The notes below the pieces were generated by a model, which had not been told where the DNA came from, ran no database searches, and worked only from the letters and a program-made list of their open reading frames with translations. A DNA stretch of 1,616 bases from Escherichia coli. GTDB taxonomy: Bacteria; Pseudomonadota; Gammaproteobacteria; Enterobacterales; Enterobacteriaceae. The DNA lies in assembly GCF_003334255.1 (NCBI RefSeq), contig NZ_QOWU01000153.1. The stretch is one strand, 5' to 3'. This document shows, piece after piece, positions 1 to 1,616 of this stretch. The position numbers were made by a program, and so were the translations under genes. Each line of letters begins with the position of its first letter. Position 1 is the stretch's first letter.

Positions 1-351
1 AACCAGATGGACCCGGTGTACACGCCGGCGCGAAAAATCCACCTGTACCACTGCGACCATCGCGGCCTGCCGCTGGCGCTTGTCAGCACGGAAGGGGCAA
101 CAGAATGGTGCGCAGAATACGATGAATGGGGCAACCTGCTGAATGAAGAGAACCCGCATCAGCTGCAGCAGCTTATCCGCCAGCCGGGGCAGCAGTATGA
201 TGAGGAGTCCGGCCTGTATTACAACCGCCACCGCTATTATGACCCGCTGCAGGGGAGGTATATCACTCAGGATCCGATTGGGCTGAAGGGGGGATGGAAT
301 TTTTATCAGTATCCGCTGAATCCGGTTCAGTATATAGATTCAATGGGACTG
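1..351 (+). other. Conserved Rhs core C-terminal segment, ending in the PxxxxDPxGL-type demarcation/autoproteolysis motif ([10 protein letters not shown], nt 322-351)
   Basis: YD-repeat-like RYYDP (aa 76-80), DPIGL (aa 89-93) and PxxxxDxxGL (aa 106-115) are read directly from the translation. The segment is GC-rich (about 58% by hand count over nt 1-60), unlike everything downstream. Confidence 0.85.
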
Positions 352-810
352 GCATCAAAATATGGACACTTAAATAATGGCGGATATGGAGCGAGACCCA
401 ACAAACCGCCTACGCCCGATCCAAGTAAATTGCCGGACATAGCGAAACAATTAAGACTGCCATATCCTATTGACCAGGCCAGTAGTGCGCCTAATGTTTT
501 CAAAACATTCTTCAGAGCATTAAGCCCTTACGACTACACACTGTATTGCAGGAAGTGGGTAAAACCAAATCTGACTTGTACGCCACAGGATGATTCCCAG
601 TATCCAGGGATGGATACAAAGACAGCAAGTGATTACCTGCCACAGACAAATTGGCCAACAACTCAATTACCACCAGGATATACTTGTGCAGAACCCTATT
701 TATTCCCAGACATTAATAAACCCGATGGGCCAGCAACAGCAGGGATAGATGATTTGGGTGAAATTTTAGCTAAGATGAAACAGAGAACATCGAGAGGAAT
801 AAGAAAATGA
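1..810 (+). CDS. Rhs-family polymorphic toxin, 3' portion of the gene (5'-partial): conserved core terminus plus variable C-terminal toxin domain
   Basis: Frame 1 is open from nt 1 (aac cag precede the ATG at 7), so the listed ATG is an internal Met and the gene continues upstream. The translation ([12 protein letters not shown]...[47 protein letters not shown]) is the hallmark C-terminal end of the enterobacterial Rhs/YD-repeat core. Stop TGA at 808-810. Confidence 0.9.
352..810 (+). other. Variable Rhs C-terminal (CT) toxin domain, about 152 aa, activity not recognisable; Pro-rich linker followed by a roughly 110-aa C-terminal module
   Basis: It begins immediately after the DSMGL motif, where Rhs proteins carry their polymorphic toxin tips. 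Composition drops to about 45% GC (hand count over nt 421-480). A Pro-rich stretch ([30 protein letters not shown], aa 128-157) precedes a Cys-containing module (C181, C191, C227). I see no HNH, deaminase, ADP-ribosyltransferase or other familiar catalytic motif. Confidence 0.75.
792..799 (+). promoter_or_regulatory. Shine-Dalgarno / ribosome-binding site for the immunity ORF, embedded in the 3' end of the toxin ORF
   Basis: GAGAGGAA at 792-799, with the AGGA core ending 8 nt before the ATG at 807. Consistent with translational coupling. Confidence 0.5.
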
Positions 811-863
811 AAAGAGTTTTGTTCTTTTTGCTGATGATATTTGTTAGTTTTGGTGTTATAGCT
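807..863 (+). other. Predicted Sec signal peptide of the immunity protein (possible signal peptidase I cleavage after VIA, aa 19); a non-cleaved signal anchor is the alternative
   Basis: MKR positive n-region, a 14-residue hydrophobic h-region ([14 protein letters not shown]) and small residues at -3/-1 (V-I-A) before DC. It is not a lipobox, because the residue before Cys21 is Asp. Confidence 0.5.
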
Positions 864-1376
864 GATTGCGAAATACAAGCTAAAGATCATGATTGTTTTA
901 CTATTTTCGCTAAGGGTACTATTTTTTCCGCGTTTCCTGTCTTAAATAATAAAGCCATGTGGAGATGGTATCAGAATGAGGACATCGGTGAGTATTATTG
1001 GCAAACAGAACTGGGTACATGTAAAAATAATAAATTCACACCAAGCGGGGCGAGACTCTTAATTCGCGTCGGGTCACTACGCCTTAATGAAAATCATGCC
1101 ATCAAAGGAACGTTGCAGGAGTTGATAAATACAGCAGAAAAAACGGCGTTTCTCGGCGATCGGTTTAGAAGTTATATAAGAGCGGGTATCTATCAAAAAA
1201 AGAGCAGTGATCCAGTTCAGTTGTTGGCAGTCCTTGATAATTCAATCATGGTAAAATATTTTAAAGATGAGAAACCAACTTATGCTCGAATGACAGCACA
1301 TCTCCCGAACAAAAATGAGTCTTACGAATGTTTAATAAAGATACAGCATGAACTAATTCGTAGTGAAGAGAAATAA
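807..1376 (+). CDS. Putative cognate Rhs immunity protein (RhsI-like), 189 aa, with N-terminal signal peptide or membrane anchor
   Basis: The ORF lies immediately downstream of the Rhs CT with a 4-bp ATGA overlap (start 807-809, toxin stop 808-810), the canonical toxin-immunity arrangement. A Shine-Dalgarno-like GAGAGGAA sits 8-15 nt upstream. The N-terminus [19 protein letters not shown] has a basic n-region, a hydrophobic core and a VIA motif. The region is very AT-rich (about 30% GC by hand count over nt 841-900). Confidence 0.75.
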
Positions 1377-1590
1377 AATCTCTTCCTGAGAAAACAAATT
1401 AATCATTGTGAAAAATTATATAACTCATGGAATAGGTGTTTATTTTGCGTTCCATTTGCAGGGAAAGATCACGTAACGCTACTTTTTTGTACTAAATAAT
1501 TCGAATTTTAAGTTCAACAATTGAGATACTACTTATTGTCTAAAGCTGTTTTTCATAGCTTATACATGATCAAATACTCCTTACATAAAT

Positions 1591-1597
1591 AAGGTGA
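1591..1597 (+). promoter_or_regulatory. Possible ribosome-binding site for a downstream ORF
   Basis: AAGGTGA lies 5 nt upstream of the ATG at 1602. Confidence 0.35.
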
Positions 1598-1601
1598 ACA
1601 A

Positions 1602-1616
1602 ATGGAACTTAAAAAA
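1602..1616 (+). CDS. Possible start of a downstream gene (3'-partial, only 5 codons visible: MELKK)
   Basis: ATG at 1602 preceded by an AAGGTGA RBS-like motif, after about 225 bp of AT-rich non-coding sequence. Too short to assess coding potential or identity. Confidence 0.3.

Follow-up and report, generated by a model that had tools for sequence, protein, structure and literature searches.

Tandem partial H-repeats of the RhsC region of Escherichia coli were reportedly described by the Hill laboratory in the early 1990s. In the insertion sequences (IS) IS10 and IS50, an upstream segment pairs with the ribosome-binding site (RBS) of the transposase gene in read-through transcripts, and transcripts that start at the element's own promoter lack this segment. 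For the H-repeats, transposition had not been observed (PMC3032704). The DNA that was analyzed here, referred to as the window, is a stretch of 1616 nucleotides which comes from the RhsC region of E. coli (99.9% identity over 1616 bases). Its last part, positions 1377–1616, is very probably a composite junction that is made up of the ybfC trailer, a filler sequence, and the decayed left end of an ISAs1-family element with the start of ybfQ. This feature, at which the ybfC cassette meets the first RhsC H-repeat (ybfQ), is already known and annotated, and it is ordinary. The window and the first tandem H-repeat of RhsC (ybfQ, ISEc1) share sequence, position, terminal repeat, and leader, and nothing essential differs between them. 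When set against H-repeat/ISEc1, the window copy is truncated at 380 bp, lacks a target duplication, and carries the Shine–Dalgarno (SD) variant AAGGTG.

Gene order at the rhsC/ybfC/ybfQ locus

The window includes the end of an rhs core with its tip, ybfC, the 1377–1601 stretch, and the first five codons of ybfQ. Its Rhs part comprises the following features:

7–810: end of the partial rhs core and toxin tip, with profile matches to RHS_core and Rhs_assc_core
807–1376: ybfC (immunity gene)

The rhsC/ybfC/ybfQ region that matches the window is found in thousands of E. coli genomes, and at least 80% of the window is present in 3516 of 5426 complete genomes. In J53 (K-12-type, L001), the genes are arranged in the order ybfA, rhsC, ybfB, a partial rhs core with its own C-terminal tip, ybfC, and ybfQ, the last of which is followed by two more ISAs1 transposase pseudogenes and then by ybgA. 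The stop codon of the toxin tip (TGA, 808–810) and the start codon of ybfC (ATG, 807–809) form an ATGA overlap, which suggests that the translation of the two reading frames may be coupled. The N-terminus of YbfC has the look of a signal or lipoprotein peptide, and a search of NCBIfam profiles returned no match for ybfC.

In K-12-type genomes, the pair formed by the toxin tip and ybfC is a displaced orphan cassette located behind rhsC and ybfB, and in E2865 and EDL933 the same pair constitutes the tip of a full-length Rhs protein. As judged by comparison of the corresponding segments (window 7–1376, L001:5290–7376, L004:611–5376, and L005:1–3877), the pair clearly exemplifies the displacement of a C-terminal tip at a single locus. 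The window, which ends at 1616, does not distinguish K-12-type from E2865-type genomes. In an earlier reading of the window, made from its letters alone and referred to below as the sequence-only reading, this pair was taken for the primary CT/immunity pair of the locus; in K-12-type genomes, the orphan cassette is this very pair. The same reading pointed out that, in rhs loci, orphan CT/immunity cassettes or IS remnants are often located behind such a pair. A remnant is indeed there, and an orphan cassette is not: no rhs core end with the PxxxxDPxGL motif, no toxin tip, and no immunity ORF were found in 1377–1616, and the Rhs cassette is located upstream, at 7–1376.

Three-part composition of the spacer

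The ybfC-type ORF ends at position 1376, and the stretch between it and the ATG at 1602 (1377–1601) is 225 bp long. In agreement with the sequence-only reading, these 225 bp after the immunity stop are AT-rich and contain no ORF. Stop codons are present in all six frames, and the longest ORFs comprise 22 and 23 codons, with no support for either as a gene. The GC content is 28.9%; that of the window as a whole is 41.5%, and that of ybfC is 36.7%. Segments within 751–900, around the start of ybfC, also have a GC content of 28–33%, so the AT-richness of the spacer is unexceptional for a low-GC module. A terminator scan of 1250–1616 found zero sites for an intrinsic terminator after ybfC, and a search of all 1616 nt against Rfam at E ≤ 1 matched no family. 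The predicted fold contains a loose hairpin at 1378–1437, which is not conserved beyond 1415 in other ybfC copies.

The spacer had been regarded as a single rhs intergenic region. This view has to be replaced, as the spacer is divided into three pieces, with IS DNA from 1459 onward. Its segments up to position 1549 are as follows:

1377–1415, plus strand: 3′ trailer of the ybfC cassette, ∼90% identity in the EDL933 and ST2747 copies
1416–1458, no strand assigned: junction filler of 43 nt, matched at its own locus only
1459–1476, plus strand: left terminal inverted repeat (IRL), CAGGGAAAGATCACGTAA, with a GATC at 1467–1470 inside
1477–1549, plus strand: AT-rich leader of the IS, from the IRL to the promoter-like region

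The ybfC copies of O157:H7 EDL933 (L005) and ST2747 (L006) are ∼90% identical to the window up to position 1415/1419 and then diverge wholly; at the ybfC locus of ST2747, yibA lies downstream. By this comparison, 1377–1415 is a segment that moves together with ybfC into other Rhs loci. To the left of ∼1457, among the matches listed, only copies from the same locus align, and the filler at 1416–1458 has no counterpart in EDL933 or ST2747 save short chance matches. In EDL933, ∼1.4 kb (L005:3917–5319) separates the ybfC trailer from the H-repeat, at the place where the window has 43 nt, and this stretch carries an NTF2-fold immunity gene and a DUF6258 gene, both small. The idea that the filler is a leftover of this orphan-immunity region was rejected because no homology was found. 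Its interpretation as a relic of an inverted H-repeat was likewise rejected, since the likeness of its reverse complement to the transposase start ends at ∼16–18 nt (by eye). Finally, the arrangement in H36, in which 1424–1616 lies behind different upstream DNA, was set aside as nothing more than an IS1-mediated rearrangement.

The IS boundary at position 1459

From position 1459 on, the window is ISAs1-family IS DNA (143 of the 225 bp and the ATG), namely the Rhs H-repeat, and is close to ISEc1. The DNA beyond this position recurs elsewhere with unrelated flanks, and the downstream ORF is related to ISAs1 transposases. When 1377–1616 was used as a query, a median of 3 places per genome was found, and the copies located outside the locus began to match at query positions 81–84, which correspond to positions 1457–1460 of the window. 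In the alignment, nine independent copies start at the same CAGGGAAAGATCA and have unrelated left flanks (the aligned copies include the second K-12 copy, ydcC, EDL933, ES8, strain 104, PEC148, 504239, and BH100). At its right end, the H-repeat carries the counterpart of the IRL (1459–1476), with 89% complementarity over 18–19 nt, and the same terminal repeats delimit the 1291-bp copies in L002, L005, and L007. The leader at 1477–1549 shows 85–94% identity to other H-repeat/ISEc1 copies; altogether, the AT-rich leader that follows the 18-nt IRL amounts to ∼100 nt. The inverted repeat at 1459–1476 would serve as the recognition site of the transposase. The exact position of the IS boundary and the three-part anatomy of the spacer aid the correct delimitation of Rhs cassettes.

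The copy whose left end lies in the window, the first of the tandem array, is H-repeat C1. It is a remnant of an ISAs1 member and not a complete element. The window copy lies in a tandem array and has no target duplication (8–10 bp would be expected for ISAs1), and an empty site that joins the ybfC flank to the DNA past the H-repeats was found in 0 of 5426 E. coli genomes. Transposition of the window copy to this exact spot is thus supported by neither a duplication nor an empty site. The first tandem copy in L001 breaks off at codon 79, precisely at the start of the complete left repeat of the next copy. The third copy abuts the right repeat of the second and is devoid of approximately its first 24 nt, and thus of the left repeat. 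The positions of these joints are:

L001:7839–7856 and L001:9128–9135: tandem H-repeat joints

An intact copy is present in ES8, in which a 1291-bp ISEc1 with an intact transposase is located next to ybfA (L007:1599–2909). This copy is bordered by a perfect 10-bp target duplication, TGTCCATTTT, and other E. coli genomes contain, at 100% identity, the empty site that was reconstructed by leaving one decamer. The exact end of the IS is fixed by the duplication around the ES8 copy. As read from these alignments, the ES8 insertion is natural evidence of recent ISEc1 transposition in the wild.

The decayed transposase gene ybfQ

The right end of the window contains the start of the transposase gene, with the following elements:

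1591–1597, plus strand: SD sequence AAGGTGA, 4 nt ahead of the ATG
1602–1616, plus strand: first five codons of the transposase (MELKK), with the RefSeq CDS start at 1602

Both AAGGTGA and the ATG that opens MELKK had been recognized in the sequence-only reading, and both are present; in other copies, the SD sequence is AAGGAGA. In RefSeq, the CDS that starts at 1602 is annotated as an ISAs1 family transposase pseudogene, ybfQ (ybfD in some genomes). Residues 1–79 of its product share 97% identity with the intact ISEc1 transposase of 378 aa; this intact protein reaches 413 bits with the NCBIfam profile NF033564 and contains both PF13808 and PF01609. The 79-aa fragment matches NF033564 with E = 9e-18 and 64.5 bits, and it is only because of its truncation that this score falls below the cut-off of 70. 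In K-12-type genomes, the ORF is 84 codons long: beyond codon 79 it continues into the inverted repeat of the following tandem copy, which provides the last residues of ybfQ, QGKIT, and the stop codon. In E2865-type genomes, the left end and the ATG are the same, and a stop is encountered at codon 18. The transposase gene that begins at the ATG at 1602 is thus decayed in every genomic context examined. A new gene had been proposed to start at this ATG, with the reservation that the call would not hold if the ATG opened no substantial ORF. The start is correct, as it is the annotated start of ybfQ. The gene call itself is weak by that reservation, given the 84 codons of K-12-type genomes and the early stop of E2865-type genomes. 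Annotation of the downstream ORF, which had been suggested as a check, yielded the start of an ISAs1 transposase, in decayed form.

Other explanations of this gene start may be considered. The stretch could be a true rhs intergenic regulatory region, and the ATG at 1602 the beginning of a further rhs-associated gene, such as an orphan toxin or immunity cassette. In other strains, such as EDL933, ybfC is indeed followed by orphan cassettes. However, the ORF is the N-terminus of an ISAs1 transposase, a mobile repeat extends from 1459, and nothing in 1377–1601 is coding, and we give this explanation a vanishingly small probability. The AT-rich stretch with its gene start is neither a new rhs-associated gene nor a new regulatory element. 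Less far-fetched, but still improbable, is the explanation that ybfQ is alive, and that its 84-codon N-terminal product is expressed and acts in trans, e.g. by inhibiting or regulating the transposition of ISAs1 elements. This product would correspond to the DDE_Tnp_1-associated domain, which is presumably DNA-binding, and it would resemble the truncated transposases of other IS families. In line with this, the promoter-like region, SD sequence, and ATG are intact, the 84 codons are open, the left end is 100% conserved in many genomes, and the spacer is bound by RNA polymerase in vitro. In addition, the Keio ybfQ deletion strain has a phenotype in a worm-feeding screen, in which Caenorhabditis elegans fed with this strain showed altered UV-B tolerance (PMC12655312, 2025). 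On the other hand, RefSeq labels the gene as a pseudogene, a stop codon is located at codon 18 in E2865-type genomes, and strong conservation is expected anyway inside one species. The worm phenotype is indirect and no sign of a protein was found; polar or neighboring effects of the deletion are a more likely cause of the altered UV-B tolerance than the loss of YbfQ. We therefore prefer the reading of ybfQ as the decayed start of an ISAs1-family transposase gene.

Candidate promoter of the element

In the sequence-only reading, it was considered that the spacer may carry a promoter for the next gene, although no convincing −35/−10 pair was recognized. The latter observation was reproduced: a consensus scan detected no plus-strand promoter with at least 9 of 12 matching positions, and the best plus-strand score (8/12) was obtained for the following element:

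1550–1578, plus strand: candidate sigma-70 promoter, TTTTCA (1550–1555), 17-nt spacer, AATACT (1573–1578)

The presence of a promoter is nevertheless plausible, as an in vitro RpoD site has been published for the spacer between ybfC and ybfQ. Shimada et al. 2014 (PMC3946193) reported that the RpoD holoenzyme binds this spacer in SELEX experiments and assigned the promoter as TTTTCA-17-AATACT; the binding is experimental, and the hexamers were chosen in silico within the bound spacer. Other K-12 H-repeat genes are absent from their list. A GATC sequence is located at 1568–1571, inside the 17-nt promoter spacer. In relatives with 45–51% protein identity, a TGATC..AT block is found at the same position and is invariant or nearly so, and the hexamer is usually TATACT, TATGCT, or GATACT; the block is common to the proteobacterial members of the family. 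The −35 hexamer is poor and is not conserved among the copies. Conservation of the TGATC..AT block supports the assignment of the −10 hexamer but does not prove it, and TTTTCA-17-AATACT (1550–1578) is predicted to be the element's own weak promoter. The best match to the promoter consensus in the region points leftward (TAAACA-16-TATAAT, 10/12, window 1442–1415 on the minus strand). It is directed antisense into ybfC, and the number of such matches is not above shuffle expectation.

A predicted hairpin at the ribosome-binding site in ISAs1-family leaders

The candidate −10 hexamer overlaps the first arm of a hairpin that involves the SD sequence:

1577–1596, plus strand: anti-SD/SD hairpin, CTCCTTA (1577–1583), loop CATAAA, TAAGGTG (1590–1596)

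A perfect 7-bp stem is formed by CTCCTTA-CATAAT-TAAGGAG in intact ISEc1; its energy is −8.0 kcal/mol, and its 3′ arm contains the SD sequence. The hairpin of the window, in which the 3′ arm is TAAGGTG, reaches only −3.5 kcal/mol, and the hairpin of the window copy appears to have been weakened by mutation. Hairpins with other stems are located at the same place in ISAs1 (CGCCTCC/GGAGGCG), ISKpn31 (GCTCCT/AGGAGT), ISPa60 (a 10-bp stem), and several metagenomic copies (ACCTCCA/TGGAGGT, ACTCTC/GAGAGT, and others). When the leaders were folded individually, the hairpin was observed in 7 of 8 divergent elements; of 16 elements that were tabulated, 15 had it, with a loop of 3–13 nt. RNAalifold, applied to an unfitted MAFFT alignment, recovered only a 3-bp core, with the arms out of register, and per-sequence folds and shuffle statistics were relied on in place of this alignment.

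Occlusion was calculated as the energy required to open positions −15 to +3, and each leader was compared with 200 shuffles of its upstream 45 nt. The analysis included 54 distinct leaders from plasmid, genome, and viral-contig collections (L007, L012–L018, and L021–L085). For these ISAs1 leaders, the sequences of which are mutually related and, for distant relatives, have start codons assigned by rule, the mean z was +1.72, and 19 of 54 were significant at the 5% level. This compares with a mean z of −0.13 and 0 of 29 significant cases for ordinary control genes from the same loci (Mann–Whitney p = 1.4e-6). The leader of the window had a z of −0.46, with 74% of the shuffles at or above its value, and by this model the RBS of the window copy is not occluded by its own leader. 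From these folds and statistics, we infer that ISAs1-family leaders generally fold the RBS into a hairpin. The literature that was searched contained no description of such RBS occlusion or of the TGATC..AT block in ISAs1 elements. Together with the GATC/−10 block and the natural transposition of ISEc1, the hairpin is mildly new, and all of these lie outside the finding proper. Occlusion of the RBS would be a small addition to how a poorly studied IS family may stay quiet.

In a modeled RNA that starts from the element's own promoter, 1.3–1.6 kcal/mol is required to open the SD/AUG region, and in longer modeled RNAs, which begin at the left inverted repeat or 225 nt upstream, 4–11 kcal/mol is required. 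Since the predicted −10 hexamer overlaps the 5′ arm of the hairpin, an RNA that is started ∼7 nt downstream of this hexamer would lack that arm. In intact relatives, the anti-SD/SD hairpin would block translation of the transposase from RNA that reads through from outside, and RNA from the element's own promoter, devoid of the 5′ arm, would be translatable. Similar to IS10 and IS50, the predicted anti-SD arm of intact ISAs1 elements overlaps the −10 hexamer, the SD sequence is located in the 3′ arm, and GATC sites are present in the terminal repeat and beside the −10 hexamer. However, the IS families are unrelated, and the ISAs1 hairpin is local and not formed with the element terminus. A tentative proposal, which we regard as rather unlikely to be correct, is that proteobacterial ISAs1 elements share an undescribed leader module. 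It would consist of the TGATC..AT block (Dam site and −10), an abutting anti-SD/SD hairpin with differing complementary stems, and a second GATC in the IRL. If this were true, only transcripts begun inside the element would be translated and expression might track post-replication methylation, as in IS10, and the window would be a decayed example. The Dam dependence of ISAs1 leaders is pure conjecture.

It is also conceivable, though less likely than not, that the hairpin is a constitutive attenuator which, like that of IS200, forms part of every transposase transcript. In such a case, there would be no discrimination against read-through RNA, and the TGATC..AT block would not be a −10 element. 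The hairpin is well supported family-wide, and the −35 hexamer is, as described above, poor and not conserved. Furthermore, IS200 uses exactly such a stem-loop in its 5′UTR (PMC4513863), which sequesters the transposase SD sequence as the ISAs1 leader hairpin is predicted to do. The IS200 stem-loop differs in that it is found inside the own-promoter mRNA, beside an antisense RNA and a left-end terminator; neither an IS200-like terminator nor an Rfam RNA was found in the scans of the window. Two features of the conserved block speak against the constitutive attenuator: it has the A2/T3 (usually T6) signature of a −10 hexamer, and in every case it adjoins or overlaps the 5′ arm, as would be expected if read-through RNA were discriminated against.

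Complementarity between the junction and the transposase start

The end of the filler that directly precedes the IS is complementary to the start of the transposase gene:

1443–1458, plus strand: 16-nt stretch abutting the IS end, 14 of 16 positions complementary to 1599–1614

The 1599–1614 segment reads CAA-ATG-GAACTTAAAA and contains the transposase start, and the innermost 10 nt pair perfectly. A match as good as this was obtained in 3% of dinucleotide shuffles. In a model of read-through RNA from ybfC, the pairing is predicted to occlude the AUG strongly: opening of the SD/AUG region requires 9.9 kcal/mol, vs 5.3 kcal/mol when the flank is shuffled, and none of the 150 shuffled flanks attained 9.9 kcal/mol. 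No other aligned copy shows a complementarity of this type. The flank is not part of the element and the gene is dead; the complementarity is probably fortuitous. The sequence TCCATTT is common to the window flank and the ES8 duplication; a target preference of ISEc1 for this sequence was considered and rejected, as the other seven flanks are unrelated.
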